DNA of 64,000 nt from Candidatus Bathyarchaeota archaeon (lineage in GTDB: Archaea; Thermoproteota; Bathyarchaeia; TCS64), in the NCBI GenBank assembly GCA_018396865.1, contig JAGTRB010000001.1, forward strand, positions 133,970 to 197,969, in the 5' to 3' direction. Position 1 is the stretch's first letter. Every line of letters starts with the position of its first letter. The position numbers were made by a program, and so were the translations under genes. Below are positions 2,478 to 49,440 of this stretch, piece after piece. The notes under the pieces were generated by a model. The model saw only the letters and a program-made list of their open reading frames with translations. It did not search any database and was not told where the DNA came from.

Positions 2478-2839
2478 CCTTGACTACAACCCTCCAGCCC
2501 CTTCTTTAAAGGTTAGAATCAGCAGTCCAACATCAACTCATTCGATAGAGATTGAGGCAAAAATAGACACAGGCGCAGATATACCGGTGCTCCCACAACA
2601 CTTGAATAAACGAGCTTAGACTCATTCCCGCAAGTCGCGTATCCGTCTCATCCTTTAACGGGCGAGAAGAACCCAAATACACATACTTTGTAAATCTACA
2701 CTTTAACAACTTCAAATTCCCAATGGTTGAAGCCATTGGTGCCAAACGCCATAATGCCCTTCTCGGTCGAGACGTCCTCAACATGCTTAAGACCACGCTT
2801 GACGGCAAAACTCTGAGCTTCGAACTCTCTGACCCTTAA
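2467..2839 (+). pseudogene. Retropepsin-like aspartic protease, disrupted by a +1 frameshift near 2606-2619
   Basis: N-part (frame 1) has IDTGADIPVLP and stops at TAG 2617-2619. C-part (frame 2) continues LRLIPASR...ALLGRDVLNMLK...SFELSDP to TAA 2837-2839; parts align with intact paralog at 1452. Confidence 0.5.
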
Positions 2840-4005
2840 ACCGCGCAAACATCGCAAAAGCCGCAAAGCTAAAGACACCAGCCAAATTCACCATCGAAGC
2901 CTTTCAGGCAATATTCACCGCTTTAAGGGTTGACCCTTTCAGGATCCCCAAGTGAAAGAAATCAGCTACGAGCTGAGAAAGACGATCCTAGACTACGTTA
3001 TAGTAGCCACAGCCCCTGCGCTGAAAAACAAGACGTTTACGCACGCGATAAATCATTTGCCATATTGGGAGAGAGAAGAGAGTCTTTAAGCCAGAAGATT
3101 CTCCTTAGGAATACATGATCTTCTTAGAAAGCTCACTTAGATAATTTTTAATTAGGTGAAATTTAGAGCCTTGTCAGCTGCTCGATGATGCTGACCCCCT
3201 TCCTATCGACGACCATCCTCTGCGAGGCTAGTAGGACAGCGGCGAAGAGGAAGCTGATGGTTATCCCTAGGAAGGGCTTCCTGCCCTCGAGGTAGTCCCT
3301 AGCCTCTACAAACCTCTCTTGCATCCCAGAGAGATAGGGGTCAAGATGCCTCCTGAAAGGAGCCATACAACAGGTTTTAATATCCGGATAGAGTTAAAAA
3401 TATCGATTCAGAACCCCCTCCTTCCAGGACCAGGGATGGAACCGCAGCAAGCCTTAACCCTCTCCTGAGATATAAGCAGCTATTTTCACATTAGGTGGAG
3501 ATGTAGCTCCTCAACGGGTCCCAGCTGTTGGGAGGTTGAAAAGGGTTTGATTCTCAGCCTGTTTCTTGAAATAAGCTTGTTTTCTTAGGCTGATCAGTCC
3601 TCCCAACCGCTGGGTATTACAGAAAATTTTCTTCCCGATAGAGTTTGGGGTTGAATCTGAGGATTCTGAGGTATCAGATAGGGGTGGGGAGGGGGTTGGA
3701 CTAGGGTTCCATGTGGATATTCGGGCCCCTCATCATATCTATTCTGAGGAGGGCGTCTAAGCCAGGTCCGTAGATGACGTAGACGAAAGTATCAGATATC
3801 AAACATATGATGGCATATAGCATCTAAACCTCTATGGTGGAACATATACAGCTTTCCCTCTCCTCTATCCTCCACCCCTTCTTGCCCTTAGGGCTTGTAG
3901 AACTTAATGCTTAGGGATAACCTAGTGTTGCTGAAGTAGACATCGAAGAGCCTCCTCAGCTGGAGGACCGGAGCCACAATCTAGTTTTTATTTCACTGGT
4001 GGGTC

Positions 4006-4422
4006 CTATGCCCTTCTTCTTTTGATGATGAAGACCGTGAGTGCCATGACTGCAATAGATAATCCTATCCAAGGGGTCAGTAGTTCCTCTATTCCCATCG
4101 AGATCAAGGCGCCTCCGACCGGAGGAGAAGGTGGAAGTTGTGGAGGAGAAGGTGCAGGCTGAAAAGCTAGCCCACCTATTGGACCAAGAGCACTCGGAAT
4201 TAAAGTCGTTAAAACATTACCATTCAAATCCAACTTGTACAAACTACCATACGTAGAAGAAGACTGATAAGCCCAAAGATAACCTTCTTCTGCTCCAACC
4301 AGCATTGGAGATTTTGTCGTAGCAACTATCATTGCTATCAACACGACTGAGAAGAGGAAGCTCCCATTTGACAACCTTGTTTTTATATTCTGAAGCACCT
4401 CCTCATCTTTCCTCAACTTCAT
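4006..4422 (-). CDS. Small secreted/anchored protein: N-terminal signal anchor, Pro-rich linker, C-terminal TM plus RRRA tail
   Basis: N-term hydrophobic FLFSVVLIAMIVATT; linker PAPSPPQLPPSPP; C-term IGLSIAVMALTVFIIKRRRA resembles tripartite C-terminal sorting signal. Confidence 0.5.
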   Translation of the reverse strand: MKLRKDEEVLQNIKTRLSNGSFLFSVVLIAMIVATTKSPMLVGAEEGYLWAYQSSSTYGSLYKLDLNGNVLTTLIPSALGPIGGLAFQPAPSPPQLPPSPPVGGALISMGIEELLTPWIGLSIAVMALTVFIIKRRRA

Positions 4423-4703: not shown

Positions 4704-5798
4704 TTGAGGTTTCTGCATTTACCGGACTTCGACCTGGTTATAGAGCTCCAGCTCAAGGAGTGGGAGGAGCTGGCCCCGAGGCCCAACGCAGACCTGCTGC
4801 CCCCCGACCCATCCCTAGAGGGAACTGGAAGAAGCTACGTCGCCCGCCTGGATGAAGCTTATCCTATTTCTCGTGAAGTGGGATGGAGAGCCAGAGCCAG
4901 GGAGGAAGAGAAGAAGGATCTCGAAGCCAAACTCGTCGAGTACCTCTGGTGGATGAGGAGGCAGGGATACGCCGATGAGACGATCAGGGGTTACGTGCTG
5001 GCCCTTAAGGTCCTAGCCGCAAGGGGTGCAGACCTCAACTCCCCAGAGTCGGTGAAGGAGGTTATAGCTAGACAAAAATGGTCCGGGAACAGGAGGAGGA
5101 ACGTGATAAACGCCTATTCGCTATTCTTGAGGATGGTTGGAGGCCGCTGGGAGAAGCCAAAGTGCGAGGTTGAGCAGAAGATCCCCTTCATACCAACCGA
5201 ACAGGAGATAGACGCCCTCATAGCAGGATCGAACAGGAGGCTCTCAACGTTTCTACAGCTACTTAAGGAGACGGCGATGAGGGCCGGTGAGGCCATTAGG
5301 CTGGAGTGGACGGATATAGATTTCGAGAGGCGCCTCATAACCCTGAATAAACCAGAGAAAAGAAGCAGCCCAAGGGTCTGGAGGGTGAGCAACGAGCTCC
5401 TGGCGAGGCTAATGACCCTTCCAAGAGAGGGGAAGAGGATCTTCCCAACATATAACAACATGAAGGGAGTATTCCTAAAAACAAGGAAGAGGTTAGCAAA
5501 CAAACTCCAGAATCCAAGAATAGAAAGAATAACCTTCCATACATTTAGACACTGGAAAGCCACAATGCTATACCACCAAACAAGAGACCCATACTACGTA
5601 AAACAGTTCTTGGGACATAAAGCCCTAAACAACACAGAGATCTACATAACAATAGAGAAAACAATATTCGGAGAGTACAACGACGAGTTTATAGTAAAGG
5701 TAGCGAGCAGGCCCGAGGAGATAAAAACCCTCCTAGAGACGGGATTCGAGTACATATGCGAGAAGGACGGCCTGATGTTCTTCAGGAAGCGCGCATAA
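4704..5798 (+). mobile_element. int: Tyrosine recombinase / phage-type integrase
   Basis: SAM-like N-domain; catalytic signature R...HTFRHWKAT...LGHKAL...TEIYI (R, H-x-x-R, H, Y); 56 nt upstream of tRNA. Confidence 0.85.
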
Positions 5799-5823
5799 AA
5801 GCTCAACAGCCAACCCCTAAACC

Positions 5824-5832
5824 TTAAAAAGT
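5824..5832 (+). promoter_or_regulatory. Putative TATA-like box for tRNA (CTTAAAAAG) ~26 nt upstream of tRNA 5-prime end
   Basis: A/T-rich box at appropriate archaeal promoter spacing; a second A/T box TTATAAAAAA lies at 5841-5850. Confidence 0.3.
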
Positions 5833-5853
5833 TACCGGGGTTATAAAAAATAG

Positions 5854-5960
5854 GCCGGGGTTGCATAGCCTGGCTAATGCGCTGGACTCATGATCCAGAG
5901 GGCTGTGGCACCAGCGCCCAGGCCGGATAGAGATCATGGGTTCAAATCCCATCCCCGGCA
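5854..5960 (+). tRNA. tRNA-Met (anticodon CAT at 5889-5891; elongator-type G1:C72, could be Ile2-CAU) with ~32-nt intron at a non-canonical position (between anticodon stem and T-stem, 5899-5935)
   Basis: Acceptor GCCGGGG/CCCCGGC, D-stem GCAT/ATGC, anticodon stem CTGGA/TCCAG with loop CTCATGA, T-arm ATGGG-TTCAAAT-CCCAT, discriminator A, then T-run CTTTTT; 37 nt where 4-5 nt variable loop expected. Confidence 0.75.
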
Positions 5961-5966
5961 CTTTTT
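5961..5966 (+). terminator. T-rich archaeal termination signal after tRNA
   Basis: CTTTTT immediately after discriminator base. Confidence 0.4.
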
Positions 5967-5967
5967 A

Positions 5968-6738
5968 ATGAATCCTCCTCACTTTTTCTGGGGTTTACTT
6001 CCTCTTCCTGAAGATCTTCGCGCCCTCCATCTAGCAGACATATTCGAACCCGGATTCCACGAGTTCGCAGGCCTCTTGGTTTTTGCGACCATAGCCACAA
6101 TAGTCGCGGATGATGATGCATTACTAGTTCTGGAGGCGCTTGTCAACAATTACTATATCCCAAGGGAGTATATTCTGCTGCACATTTCAGATGAGGAGTC
6201 TTCAGGTGTTCATAACGCCACATTGGCTGGGATAATTGAGAGCATAAACTGGGTGAATGAAACTTCAACTGGAGATGATGATGTTATAATTTATTTCTCG
6301 GGTCACGGTACGGGGAGGGGTAAGAGGGCTGGGATGGTCGCGCAGGATGGAGGGGTCCTGTGGGATCATCAGCTTGCAGCCAATCTCACCGAGATACTGG
6401 GCCATGCTAGGAGGGTTGCGGTGATATTCGACAGCTGCTTCTCAGGAGGCTTCCTAGACGACCTGGAACCCATACCCAACCTGTTAGCCATAATGGCCGG
6501 TAGAGCCATCTCATTCGAGGCCGCCTATGGGCATGGGGTCTTCACATACTGGCTCGTATGTCAGGGAATCATCAATGGCTATGCTGATGATCCAGAGCTC
6601 AACCCACACGCAAAAAAGGATGGCGTGATACCCCTTGAGGAGGCTTATGACTACACATACCATAATTTACTAGGGCAGAGCAAGCCCAAGATACTGGATA
6701 ATTACGAAGGGGACTTCCTTCCCTTGAAAGATAATTGA
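5968..6738 (+). CDS. Clan CD cysteine peptidase, caspase/metacaspase(C14)- or legumain(C13)-like; N-terminal hydrophobic anchor
   Basis: His-Gly dyad in VIIYFSGHGTG and catalytic Cys in VAVIFDSCFSGGF (DxCxSG) with correct spacing; ATG at 5968 in frame. The listed ORF start 5890 is not real: it lies inside the tRNA. Confidence 0.6.
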   Translation: MNPPHFFWGLLPLPEDLRALHLADIFEPGFHEFAGLLVFATIATIVADDDALLVLEALVNNYYIPREYILLHISDEESSGVHNATLAGIIESINWVNETSTGDDDVIIYFSGHGTGRGKRAGMVAQDGGVLWDHQLAANLTEILGHARRVAVIFDSCFSGGFLDDLEPIPNLLAIMAGRAISFEAAYGHGVFTYWLVCQGIINGYADDPELNPHAKKDGVIPLEEAYDYTYHNLLGQSKPKILDNYEGDFLPLKDN

Positions 6739-7045
6739 TTAGGCTAGAGATTATGTACTGCCCTTTTCTCCTTTATTTTTAATTTAATTCTTCTATGGGT
6801 AAAGTCACTCCGGTATTTAGGATTGCTATCGGCCTGTCATCTATCGGTCTAAATGCTTAGAGCCTTTAAAATTGATGATGCTGGGGCCAGAGTGCTAGTC
6901 AGATTAGTTTTTTACCGTGGAGTAGGATGTTGAAAGAGACCGTGAACTTCTATGGGGCTTATCTCCCTAAAAGTTTCTAATGATCTATAAATTCTGATAA
7001 TCATAATTAAGTGAGAGAGGTCTAATTCCATTAATTCTATTAGGA

Positions 7046-31750: not shown

Positions 31751-32533
31751 CTAATAATAATATTCTTCACTCATATGAGGTCTTTCCTTGGGTGTGAAGG
31801 TCTTGGCGATAACTAGGCCGAAAATGAAGCCTCCTATATGAGCCCAATACGCCACACCCGTATTTATCGGTAACATCGCTAGGAGGAGCTGGTATAGGAA
31901 CCACATACCTATCCATACATAAGCAGAGACTCTAACAACCTGCCAGAAGAATCCAAACCTTATCAATGTCCTGATCCTCGCCTCTGGAAACAGGACGAAG
32001 TAGGCACCCAAAACGCCAGAGATGGCGCCTGAGGCTCCAACGGCCGGGTATCGATCCCCGAGAGCCGTAAGCATCCAGAAGAGGGAGGCAGCCACTCCCG
32101 AGAAAATGTAAAAAGCTAGATAGCCGAGGTGCCCATAGGCATCCTCGACATTGTCTCCAAAGATATATAGGAAGAGCATATTACCTATCAGGTGCATCCA
32201 TCCCCCATGGAGAAAGATGTTCGTGACGAGGGTGTAGTACCCTCTTCCCGCCTCAACCCTGGCTGGAATCAGACCGTAGTTATAGAGGGTGTAGACGAAG
32301 TGCCTCTCCCCGAAGGACGTCTGCCAGAGGAAAACAAGGATTGAGATGACTATGAGGGACCAGTTCACATATGGGGTGATCCTCCTATGCGCCTCGTCGC
32401 CCAAGGGGAACATGTTAAAAGACCATAAAACACCCTGATCTAAATATCTTTCTGAGAGAACAAAGCCCCTAGGACGGTGAATGACCCCTTTACAGTTAGC
32501 CATATAAAACCGAGAAGCATGTGCTCCACCCAT
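31751..32533 (-). CDS. Rhomboid-family intramembrane serine protease
   Basis: GASGAISGV (GxSG) and downstream AHIGGFIFG His motif, multi-TM. Confidence 0.75.
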   Translation of the reverse strand: MGGAHASRFYMANCKGVIHRPRGFVLSERYLDQGVLWSFNMFPLGDEAHRRITPYVNWSLIVISILVFLWQTSFGERHFVYTLYNYGLIPARVEAGRGYYTLVTNIFLHGGWMHLIGNMLFLYIFGDNVEDAYGHLGYLAFYIFSGVAASLFWMLTALGDRYPAVGASGAISGVLGAYFVLFPEARIRTLIRFGFFWQVVRVSAYVWIGMWFLYQLLLAMLPINTGVAYWAHIGGFIFGLVIAKTFTPKERPHMSEEYYY

Positions 32534-47433: not shown

Positions 47434-49440
47434 ATGGGCTTTAAATCGATGGTAGGATGGGGAAGGCTTCATGGGGTCATCGGAAGGGCTCTAGGTCTTC
47501 TAGCCAGATCTAGGCCAAGCTTCAATATGATCAGCCTCCTTGAGGCCTCATCTCTTGGCCTAATTCTCGCTCTAGCCATTATTTTCAGGATTATGCCGAT
47601 AAAGTATGGAGCCTATTTCTCAACAGAGGCCGATACAGTATTCCAGTATAGGGTTGCTGAATACGTCGTGAGGAATGGGTACTCGGCATGGTTCACCTGG
47701 AATGATACCCTTAGCTGGTATCCATATGGGAGGGATATTGCCCACACGTCCTTCCCAGGCCTCCCCTTTTCAGCAGCCATCGTCTACTCTCTCCTAGTAT
47801 CCTTGGGTTTCAACTTCTCCCTTTACGATGTATGCATCTTCTTTCCCATCCTAATGGCCTCCCTCACCTGCTTATGCATCTTTTTCCTTGGGAGGGACCT
47901 TGGTGGCGGAAGCGCAGGCCTTTTGGCCTCCTTCATAATGGCCGTGGGCCCAGCATTCATCCTAAGAACATACCTAGGCTTCTTCGATACCGAGAATATA
48001 GGGATCTTCAGCACGGTGGCTATGTCCCTCTTCTTCCTAAGATCCATCGAAAGGGAGAAACCCCTCCTCAATAGGCTGCTCTACTCAATAGCGGCGGGCC
48101 TCTCCCTCTCCTACTTCCACGCATCCTGGGGTGCATCTAAATACGCTGTTGGTCTCCTAGCCCTCTTCATGGCCTCCACGCTGTTCTTCAACCTCTACGA
48201 GAGGCGACACCTACTCTCATATGGCGTCGTCCTCGGCGTCAGCTCCATAATCGCTATGATGATACCCATCCACGGCATTGGCTTCCTCTACAGCGCCGAG
48301 AATGTAGCCGCCTTCGGCCTCTTCATCCTCCTATTCATATATGAGGCGATCAAGGGCAGGATGAGCAGGTGGAAGGCCATGCTCGCCTCCGGAGTTATGC
48401 TGGCATCTCTCGCCATAGGGGTTCTCATCTTGGAGTCTAGGGGCCTAATACCTCCCCTCGCGCACAAGTTTCTAAGTGTTCTAGACCCTTCTCAGAGGGC
48501 TGCCAGCCCGCTTTTCGAGTCTGTTGCAGAGCATAGGAAGGCCACCTGGACGACTTTCTTCGAGAACTTCGGGATCACCCTCCCTCTCGCCCTCTTCGGA
48601 ACCTATCTAGCCCTGAGAAGGAGGGAGGAGAAGCTGATCTACGGCTCCCTCCTCTTCCTCTCAGCCCTCTACTTCACCGGATCCCTCATAAGGTTAGTCC
48701 TCATCCTCTCCATTCCAGTGAGCCTCATGGGAGCCTATGGCATGAAGGAGCTCCTCTCACCCTTCCTTGTAAAGGGCTCTAGGCAGGTCGAGAGGCGTTT
48801 AAGGAGGAGGAGGCTGGGCGTTAGCAGGGAGATGGGTCTAATATTTGTCGCGGCTATATTTGCATCCATTCTGCCGATGGTCTGGGGGGCAGCCAGCCTC
48901 GCAAACAGCCCGATGAACATAGGCGTGACCGTTCCAGTTAAGATGGGGGGGAGGTACCCCCAAGACTGGCTCCAGGCGCTTGTATGGATGAGGGACAACC
49001 TCCCAGAGGACTCAGTCGTGGTCTCTTGGTGGGACTACGGCTACTGGATCGAGACCTTCTCCAACAAGAGGACCCTCGCCGACGGCTCAACACTAAACGG
49101 TGAGCAGATAGGTAGAATAGGGAGGATAATGATGTTGAACCAGTCGGAGGCCCTCGAGATCCTAAAGGACTACAACGCCACCCACATCATGGTCTATTAC
49201 ACCTTCAATCCGAGTAATCCATCTCAGGAGTGGCCCCTGGGAGACAACGCTAAGTGGTACTGGATGGTTAGGATAGGGGGCCTAAACCTAACAGAGTATG
49301 TCGAGGAGGGCAGATACACCGCGAAGTTCTACGAGTCCACGATATACAACCTGATGAGGAAGAGCGCAGATCCAGAGCACTTCAAGTTGGTATACAAGTC
49401 GGAGAACGGATGGGTTCTAATATACGAGATAAAGTATTAA
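47434..49440 (+). CDS. aglB: Archaeal oligosaccharyltransferase AglB (STT3 homolog)
   Basis: Multi-TM N-domain plus WWDYGYW motif. Confidence 0.8.
   Translation: MGFKSMVGWGRLHGVIGRALGLLARSRPSFNMISLLEASSLGLILALAIIFRIMPIKYGAYFSTEADTVFQYRVAEYVVRNGYSAWFTWNDTLSWYPYGRDIAHTSFPGLPFSAAIVYSLLVSLGFNFSLYDVCIFFPILMASLTCLCIFFLGRDLGGGSAGLLASFIMAVGPAFILRTYLGFFDTENIGIFSTVAMSLFFLRSIEREKPLLNRLLYSIAAGLSLSYFHASWGASKYAVGLLALFMASTLFFNLYERRHLLSYGVVLGVSSIIAMMIPIHGIGFLYSAENVAAFGLFILLFIYEAIKGRMSRWKAMLASGVMLASLAIGVLILESRGLIPPLAHKFLSVLDPSQRAASPLFESVAEHRKATWTTFFENFGITLPLALFGTYLALRRREEKLIYGSLLFLSALYFTGSLIRLVLILSIPVSLMGAYGMKELLSPFLVKGSRQVERRLRRRRLGVSREMGLIFVAAIFASILPMVWGAASLANSPMNIGVTVPVKMGGRYPQDWLQALVWMRDNLPEDSVVVSWWDYGYWIETFSNKRTLADGSTLNGEQIGRIGRIMMLNQSEALEILKDYNATHIMVYYTFNPSNPSQEWPLGDNAKWYWMVRIGGLNLTEYVEEGRYTAKFYESTIYNLMRKSADPEHFKLVYKSENGWVLIYEIKY

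Follow-up and report, generated by a model that had tools for sequence, protein, structure and literature searches.

A caspase-like ORF beside tRNA-Met in a Bathyarchaeota archaeon: probably a 5'-truncated remnant of bacterial-type cargo

In a 64,000-nucleotide stretch of the Candidatus Bathyarchaeota archaeon assembly GCA_018396865.1 (contig JAGTRB010000001.1, positions 133,970 to 197,969; hereafter the window, in whose numbering all positions are given unless another contig is named), an open reading frame (ORF) at 5968-6738 encodes a caspase-like protein directly behind a tRNA-Met gene and a tyrosine integrase. Our favored explanation, which we hold at a probability of about 0.6, is that this ORF is a 5'-truncated C14 gene at a tRNA-Met hotspot, horizontally acquired cargo of bacterial type that now forms part of a chimeric reading frame and no longer works. 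The protein is identical to MBS7651648.1, from a Bathyarchaeota metagenome-assembled genome (MAG), which NCBI has already named 'caspase family protein [Candidatus Bathyarchaeota archaeon]'. It is nothing new in kind, being another uncharacterized C14 caspase homologue and most likely a decaying fragment, and taken alone it has little significance. The case is a cautionary one, in that a truncated chimera can still display a flawless catalytic dyad and yield a structure model that is confident over part of its length. If our explanation is right, the locus would also show plainly how cargo of bacterial type can reach a tRNA-Met integration hotspot of an archaeon and decay there.

Catalytic domain, family and origin

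The ORF and the elements within it are the following.

5968-6738 (+): caspase-like ORF, 256 residues, apparently chimeric, with a non-homologous 5' part and a 5'-truncated C14 domain
6103-6738 (+): true caspase-family homology, residues 46/47-256, from helix α1 to the native C terminus, without signal peptide, strand β1 and loop L1
6115-6117 (+): codon of Asp50, a conserved acidic residue expected to line the S1 pocket
6304-6306 (+): codon of the catalytic His113, in IIYFSGHG
6430-6432 (+): codon of Asp155, the second conserved acidic residue expected to line the S1 pocket
6436-6438 (+): codon of the catalytic Cys157, in IFDSCFSGGF

The original prediction described the product as a caspase/legumain-like clan CD cysteine peptidase with a His-Gly and DxCxSG dyad. 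Translation and dyad are as it had stated, and the catalytic residues are conserved among homologues: in a family alignment of 81 sequences, comprising the protein and its relatives, His113 is found in 81/81 and Cys157 in 79/81, and Asp50 and Asp155 are each present in 80/81. Profile searches support the clan CD fold. As a single sequence, the protein scores 25.1 bits with Pfam Peptidase_C13 (PF01650; cut-off 22.8; 80 of 258 profile positions, around the dyad) and, marginally, 21.6-21.9 bits with Peptidase_C14 (PF00656; cut-off 21.4; profile positions 42-141 only). A profile built from the protein and its two closest homologues matches the metacaspase structures Yca1, AtMC4, TbMCA2 and AtMC9 at 3e-19 to 1e-11, the bacterial caspase-like protein GSU0716 (PDB ID 3bij) at 3e-7 and legumain only at E ∼0.5, and it retrieves 85,352 cluster representatives at E ≤ 1e-3 from a 1.84-billion-protein library. 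The AlphaFold model of the 256-residue protein has a mean predicted local distance difference test score (pLDDT) of 81.5 (>85 from residue ∼50), and in it His113 and Cys157 come after strands 105-112 and 149-156, respectively; clan CD peptidases have their catalytic His, with a Gly behind it, where β3 ends and their Cys where β4 ends. Foldseek searches with this model return legumain, metacaspases, MALT1, GPI8 and caspase-8 at probability 1.0 and a template modeling (TM) score of ∼0.6. We find that the clan CD membership of the ORF is real, with a conserved His/Cys dyad.

Sequence comparison favors family C14 (metacaspase/orthocaspase-like) over C13, because Peptidase_C14 is detected in 81/81 relatives and Peptidase_C13 additionally in 23/81, and because metacaspases match the three-sequence profile so much better than legumain does (3e-19 versus E ∼0.5). 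The acidic S1 residues are Asp95 and Asp211 in TbMCA2 and Asp365 and Asp462 in MALT1 (PMC4357240); Asp50 (in ADDDA, at the start of α1) and Asp155 (in D-S-C) match these published residues by motif position. Orthocaspases cleave after Arg or Lys (PMC6426788). Since the family keeps both Asp50 and Asp155, in line with metacaspases and paracaspases, the intact ancestor was probably a secreted, Arg/Lys-specific protease.

Metacaspases have a p10 domain, and orthocaspases are without it (PMC6426788). The window protein resembles prokaryotic orthocaspases (Microcystis MaOC1 and the uncharacterized GSU0716, 3bij) in its p20-type domain, its His-Gly...Asp-x-Cys arrangement, its acidic S1 residues and its single domain of ∼260 residues. 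Unlike them, it lacks 55 N-terminal profile positions (β1 and signal peptide) and has an archaeal host. Eukaryotic type I metacaspases (Yca1, 4f6o; TbMCA2, 4afr; AtMC9) are its best structure matches by profile and among the best by fold, and the DA motif at the α1 start and the D-x-C motif both align; the window protein, however, has no N-terminal prodomain and is 12-17% identical to these proteins in structural alignments. With legumain and GPI8 (C13) it shares the clan CD fold, the top Foldseek matches (TM ∼0.6) and a Pfam C13 score just above the cut-off, but the profile match is at E ∼0.5, the protein is without secretory or membrane targeting, and there is no evidence of transamidase partners.

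The relatives are mostly small bacterial proteins of secreted or lipoprotein type. The nearest homologue among species-representative genomes, from a Dehalococcoidia MAG, is 46% identical, carries a signal peptide and has unrelated neighbors. A search of 5.8 billion proteins returned, near-identical MAG copies aside, no archaeal relative above ∼35% identity; archaeal caspase homologues are rare in general (93 of 11,208 surveyed; PMC6426788). In the Dehalococcoidia MAG (L001, 5439-6200 and 6283-7065), the 260-residue caspase homologue with its signal peptide is preceded by another exported protein, which shows a Cys protease-like YTCGAAAL motif when judged by eye.

N terminus, integrase remnant and the tRNA-Met hotspot

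Most relatives start with a hydrophobic signal, often including a lipobox Cys, followed by YAxIIGIxDY, which forms strand β1. An N-terminal hydrophobic signal is found in 61/81 relatives and is missing from the window protein, whose best 12-residue hydropathy within the first 40 residues is 1.07 compared with 2.77 in its closest relative, P0002. BLASTP homology starts at residue 83 against P0002 (47% identity) and at residue 47 against P0022. When a family hidden Markov model (HMM) was built from the 80 other sequences, nodes 56-289 alone aligned, to residues 46-251; residues 1-45 had no match in this model, which covers P0002 from residue 1. The AlphaFold pLDDT falls below 50 at residues 1-41 and no β1 is built; with the same alignment, P0002 is modeled with a signal helix and β1 (residues 44-50) at a pLDDT of ∼96. 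A frameshifted canonical N terminus was sought in the other two forward frames of 5800-6200 and was not found. By profile alignment, then, the ORF lacks the N-terminal 55 profile positions of its family, signal peptide and β1 included. The minimal caspase/haemoglobinase core is made up of four strands, in the sheet order 2-1-3-4, and helices α1-α3, and β1 is one of its central strands (PMC4357240); without β1 the window protein does not have this core complete. A MAFFT alignment placed A23, G29 and F33 on the β1 motif; we regard this placement as spurious, since neither the leave-one-out HMM nor BLASTP finds a match before residue 46.

What stands in place of the native N terminus can be traced to an integrase gene. 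The features on both sides of the junction are the following.

4704-5798 (+): intact tyrosine integrase (Pfam Phage_integrase, 1.3e-19), with its stop 55 nucleotides before the tRNA 5' end
5742-5789 and 6004-6051: arms of an inverted repeat of integrase 3'-end sequence (75% over 48 nucleotides), which brackets the tRNA
5854-5960 (+): tRNA-Met(CAU) with a 33-nucleotide intron at ∼5900-5932 in the variable-loop region (Rfam RF00005, 55.4 bits)
5995-6078 (-): remnant of an integrase 3' end (27 codons and the stop codon), interrupted by a stop at 6031-6033, reading QEACELVESGFEYVC, stop, MEGAKIFRKRK, stop

By blastx, the remnant shares 63% identity with the C-terminal 27 residues of the integrases of three metagenome contigs, L102, L043 and L050 (for example EEFTELLESGFEYVSDYEGRKVLRKRK, followed by the stop), and 50% with the integrase of the window itself; at the DNA level it matches four integrase 3' ends (L097, L055, L102 and L043). 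The matching integrases adjoin the same tRNA in these related contigs. The end of the remnant lies 35 nucleotides past the tRNA 3' end, on the opposite strand, and codons ∼11-37 of the caspase-like ORF are its antisense strand. Because these codons are antisense to an integrase pseudogene fragment, we read the ORF as a chimera, open by chance back to its ATG. The hydrophobic N-terminal anchor of the original prediction has to be given up: FAGLLVFATIATIV is a stretch of 14 hydrophobic residues with acidic and no basic flanks, it is followed without a gap by the conserved ADDDA that opens α1, it falls in a region partly antisense to the integrase remnant, and it is not credible as a signal or anchor. 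The apparent anchor is in fact an integrase pseudogene read from its antisense strand.

The ATG of the ORF follows the last tRNA base by 7 nucleotides and stands directly behind a TTTTT run (5962-5966); there is therefore no room for a promoter of its own. Start calls conflict on essentially the same DNA, with 282 residues in Logan and either 256 or 220 in the Prokaryotic Genome Annotation Pipeline (PGAP), depending on the MAG. The 282-residue call (5890-6738, made both by Logan and in the mechanical ORF list) starts at an ATG inside the tRNA gene, and PGAP starts the same sequence at ATG 5968 in some MAGs and at TTG 6073 (220 residues) in others.

The adjacency of integrase and tRNA noted in the original prediction was found as described. 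ARAGORN reports no tRNA in the window, the intron-containing tRNA-Met being missed; its insertion sits in the variable-loop region and not at the canonical anticodon-loop position. The integrase scores far under the XerA cut-off and is 35-41% identical to the integrases that adjoin the same tRNA in relatives. A scan of public metagenomes with the last 23 nucleotides of the tRNA yielded 69 loci (an earlier scan with the 45-nucleotide 5' exon had yielded none). Over its full 107 nucleotides, including the intron, the tRNA shares 87-95% identity with its counterparts in dozens of metagenome loci from sediments and hot springs. At least two nearly full-length tRNA-like copies (attachment, att, repeats) are present in 18/69 loci, and in 7/69 an integrase lies just downstream of the tRNA. 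The 18 loci (L046, L088, L089, L096 and 14 others) carry two to three copies in tandem, each without the first 4-25 nucleotides, and the att copies contain intron sequence too. These arrays lie downstream of the genuine tRNA, with 0.4-2.7 kb between copies, and indicate that elements have integrated and decayed at the site repeatedly. The att site of this hotspot spans nearly the whole intron-containing tRNA.

None of the 69 loci contains a caspase homologue. Where the end of the alanine racemase gene (alr) is included, alr is followed by tRNA-Met on the same strand at a distance of 49-178 nucleotides (34/36 loci), and alr of the related loci shares 58-77% protein identity with that of the window. 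The window lineage departs from this order: its tRNA points toward alr, inverted with respect to the conserved arrangement of the related loci (e.g. L035, L088 and L065), in which alr and tRNA are about 60 nucleotides apart. Between tRNA and alr lie 1085 nucleotides, occupied by no more than the remnant of the integrase, the 5'-truncated caspase gene and a spacer of 307 nucleotides (6739-7045) that is not similar to the sequence between alr and tRNA in relatives. The upstream neighbor of the caspase-like ORF is accordingly the tRNA and its downstream neighbor a convergent alr.

In our favored explanation, a secreted, orthocaspase-type C14 gene of bacterial kind would have reached the Bathyarchaeia lineage horizontally, as cargo at the tRNA-Met hotspot. 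A later deletion or rearrangement would have taken its 5' end, with the signal peptide, linker, β1 and loop L1. If the integrase and caspase genes were divergently oriented, a deletion between them could have removed both 5' ends and joined the 3' four-fifths of the caspase gene to the last 27 codons of the oppositely oriented integrase, whose antisense strand would happen to stay open to the ATG 7 nucleotides behind the tRNA, giving the 256-residue ORF. A further rearrangement would be needed for the orientation of the tRNA relative to alr.

The locus resembles tRNA-targeting archaeal integrative elements and their remnants in its tyrosine integrase beside a tRNA, its fragment of an integrase pseudogene and its truncated cargo, and in the repeated, nearly full-length att copies of its relatives (18/69 loci). 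It differs from them in that no att repeat is present, so that the element is without defined boundaries (searches of the window and of 10 kb of upstream sequence from L022, a contig of the same clade, gave no tRNA-fragment direct repeat of at least 13 nucleotides), and in the inversion of the tRNA relative to alr. Scans of viral contigs gave 0 matches for the caspase profile and one distant match for the integrase. The proposal that the gene is mobile-element cargo stands in part: integrase and tRNA adjoin one another amid att debris, and relatives have no caspase gene at this site, but the gene appears here as a truncated remnant and not as an intact stand-alone effector.

The same surroundings could instead suggest that a mobile element carries an active effector of defense or cell death, for example one linked to gasdermin or to a toxin-antitoxin pair, by analogy with MaOC1. 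An integration hotspot with an integrase alongside would suit such a gene, PIN-domain gene pairs lie 4-7 kb away, PADLOC returns a weak match (22 bits, to its generic 'caspase' model only), and one report describes MaOC1 cleaving the adjacent antitoxin (PMC7935541). The ORF, however, has no adjacent partner gene, since the tRNA lies upstream and the convergent alr downstream; it scores 25 bits with the NCBIfam model caspase_w_EACC1 against a cut-off of 140; its relatives are mostly of secreted or lipoprotein type; and the evidence for truncation applies here as well. The partner genes named in the original prediction (gasdermin, CHAT, NACHT and archaeosortase) were not seen among the window ORFs scanned, a partial set that includes ten further ones, or among the genes tabulated for L022 and L027. 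We consider such an effector very unlikely.

Strain variation and the function of the truncated gene

We recovered seven further assemblies of the same clade; gene context was read from a cluster member three residues off the window protein (Y63H, G88E and one other). Among eight near-identical strains, we counted 7 codon changes in the 771 nucleotides of the caspase-like ORF, 5 of them nonsynonymous (including T115P next to the catalytic His) and 2 synonymous, compared with 0 nonsynonymous and 5 synonymous changes in the 3099 nucleotides of alr and AOR (one-tailed Fisher p ∼0.03). Though the counts are small, the comparison indicates relaxed constraint on the ORF.

A divergent, partial allele is found in L025 (contig JAWBPB010000192.1 of GCA_038825535.1; 1-600, corresponding to 6139-6738 of the window). 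This contig starts at codon 58 (6139), the 5' end of the allele lying beyond it, and differs by 7.2% over the last 597 nucleotides of the ORF. The synonymous divergence (dS) over the last 199 codons is 0.16, and the ratio of nonsynonymous to synonymous divergence (dN/dS) is 0.33, significantly below 1; the divergence has accumulated largely under purifying selection. The adjacent alr of L025 is only 0.75% divergent, and the spacer, alr and AOR are all below 1%. Either a recombination tract that ends near the caspase stop or recently homogenized flanks could account for this difference between the caspase gene and its surroundings.

Several contigs, from independent assemblies, end or begin at the junction. 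The first position of both L023 and L026, two contigs from Logan, is tRNA base 1 (5854), L025 starts inside the caspase-like ORF, L029 ends at 6184, inside the caspase-like ORF, and L030 ends at 6758, at the 3' end of the ORF. This suggests co-existing variants at the tRNA/caspase junction in the sampled populations, and thus a polymorphic junction. On the other side of the tRNA, the last ∼440 nucleotides of the integrase and the spacer up to tRNA base 1 (5411-5853, compared with 9449-9886 in L022) are ∼25% divergent between strains that are otherwise 99% identical; most of these differences are synonymous, and the proteins are ∼88% identical there. The integrase looks like a mosaic generated by recombination between related elements.

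Because the protein lacks the central core strand β1 and the gene has no obvious promoter, we infer that the product is not a working enzyme and that the ORF is drifting. Taken separately, the claim that the ORF no longer makes a working enzyme seems to us probable. A number of observations weigh against our explanation. Neither the catalytic dyad nor the pair of S1 aspartates has been lost, and the hydrophobic, β-prone LLVFATIATIV in the new N terminus might replace β1. The ORF is uninterrupted in every strain seen, including the 7%-divergent allele of L025, and the sample of polymorphisms is small (7 versus 5 changes). The dN/dS of 0.33 in L025 could reflect purifying selection on the truncated gene itself, or else selection that preceded the loss of the 5' end or that acted in a donor lineage whose gene was complete. 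Finally, no single inversion or integration that we considered fits the present gene order, with its tRNA inverted relative to alr.

Most of these points can be turned into a positive case that the truncated gene encodes a working, cytoplasmic, Arg/Lys-specific protease of orthocaspase type, with a surrogate β1 supplied by the new N terminus and transcription driven by the tRNA. Read-through from the tRNA promoter followed by tRNA 3' processing could yield a near-leaderless mRNA, or a promoter could lie inside the tRNA. Residues 50-256 are modeled with high confidence, the β-prone hydrophobic stretch stands immediately before α1, and orthocaspases without a p10 domain can be active, as exemplified by MaOC1 (PMC6426788); the open frame in all strains, the conserved dyad and S1 aspartates and the L025 dN/dS fit as well. 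Set against this are the absence of any profile match for residues 1-45, part of which is antisense to an integrase pseudogene, the lack of β1 in the AlphaFold model, the missing room for a promoter together with the T5 run between tRNA and ATG, and the predominance of nonsynonymous changes among the recent polymorphisms. We consider this reading as a whole doubtful; the survival of a cytoplasmic protease, taken by itself, is possible but still the less probable outcome. An improbable variant goes further and would have the antisense-integrase and junction sequence recruited as an N terminus that replaces β1, so that a bacterial orthocaspase once secreted would become a protease of the archaeal cytoplasm, expressed from a tRNA-mRNA co-transcript with a 7-nucleotide leader. 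If this were true, the dN/dS of L025 would signify ongoing selection at a variable, hotspot-linked locus.

The 4006-4422 protein and other neighbors

One gene outside the caspase feature had been connected with it.

4006-4422 (-): 138-residue ORFan membrane protein, with a hydrophobic segment at the N terminus, then a Pro-rich linker, and at the C terminus a transmembrane segment plus RRRA

The original prediction took this C terminus for a sorting signal and suggested that the protease might be a legumain/GPI8-like transpeptidase or processing enzyme acting on it. The tail itself is as described (Pro-rich, with a C-terminal hydrophobic segment and RRRA). The marginally higher Pfam score of C13 over C14 on the single sequence and the presence of GPI8 and legumain among the fold matches also speak for the proposal. 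We nevertheless attach almost no weight to it. The protease has neither a signal peptide nor a credible anchor that would place it outside the cytoplasm, and the sequence evidence favors C14 over C13 as its family. The two genes are on opposite strands, with the integrase and the tRNA att site between them, and the closest caspase homologues have no 4006-4422-like neighbor in their contexts. The putative substrate has no homologue outside the clade among 5.8 billion proteins and no match to the CTERM/NCBIfam sorting-signal models, and none of the other 79 window ORFs shares its tail, which only this one carries. The known prokaryotic C-terminal sorting enzymes are sortase, exosortase, archaeosortase, rhombosortase and myxosortase, none of which is a caspase. 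By default, the 4006-4422 product is read as a protein simply anchored in the membrane by its C terminus, with a tail that follows the positive-inside rule.

Elsewhere in the window are a rhomboid-family intramembrane protease (31751-32533, -) and an AglB/STT3 oligosaccharyltransferase (47434-49440, +). Rhombosortases, which are of rhomboid type, process some bacterial C-terminal sorting signals; nothing ties the rhomboid of the window to the 4006-4422 protein.

To the left of the integrase, the intervals 2620-3162 and 3367-4005 (540-640 nucleotides each) contain no convincing ORF, and an Rfam scan at gathering thresholds was empty. Further to the left, at 1452-1838, 2196-2477 and 2467-2619 (all +), we located clan AA aspartic protease ORFs (retropepsin-like, TIGR03698), one of full length and one a 50-residue fragment, beside a 93-residue ORF; they may represent a two-gene module with a degraded copy.

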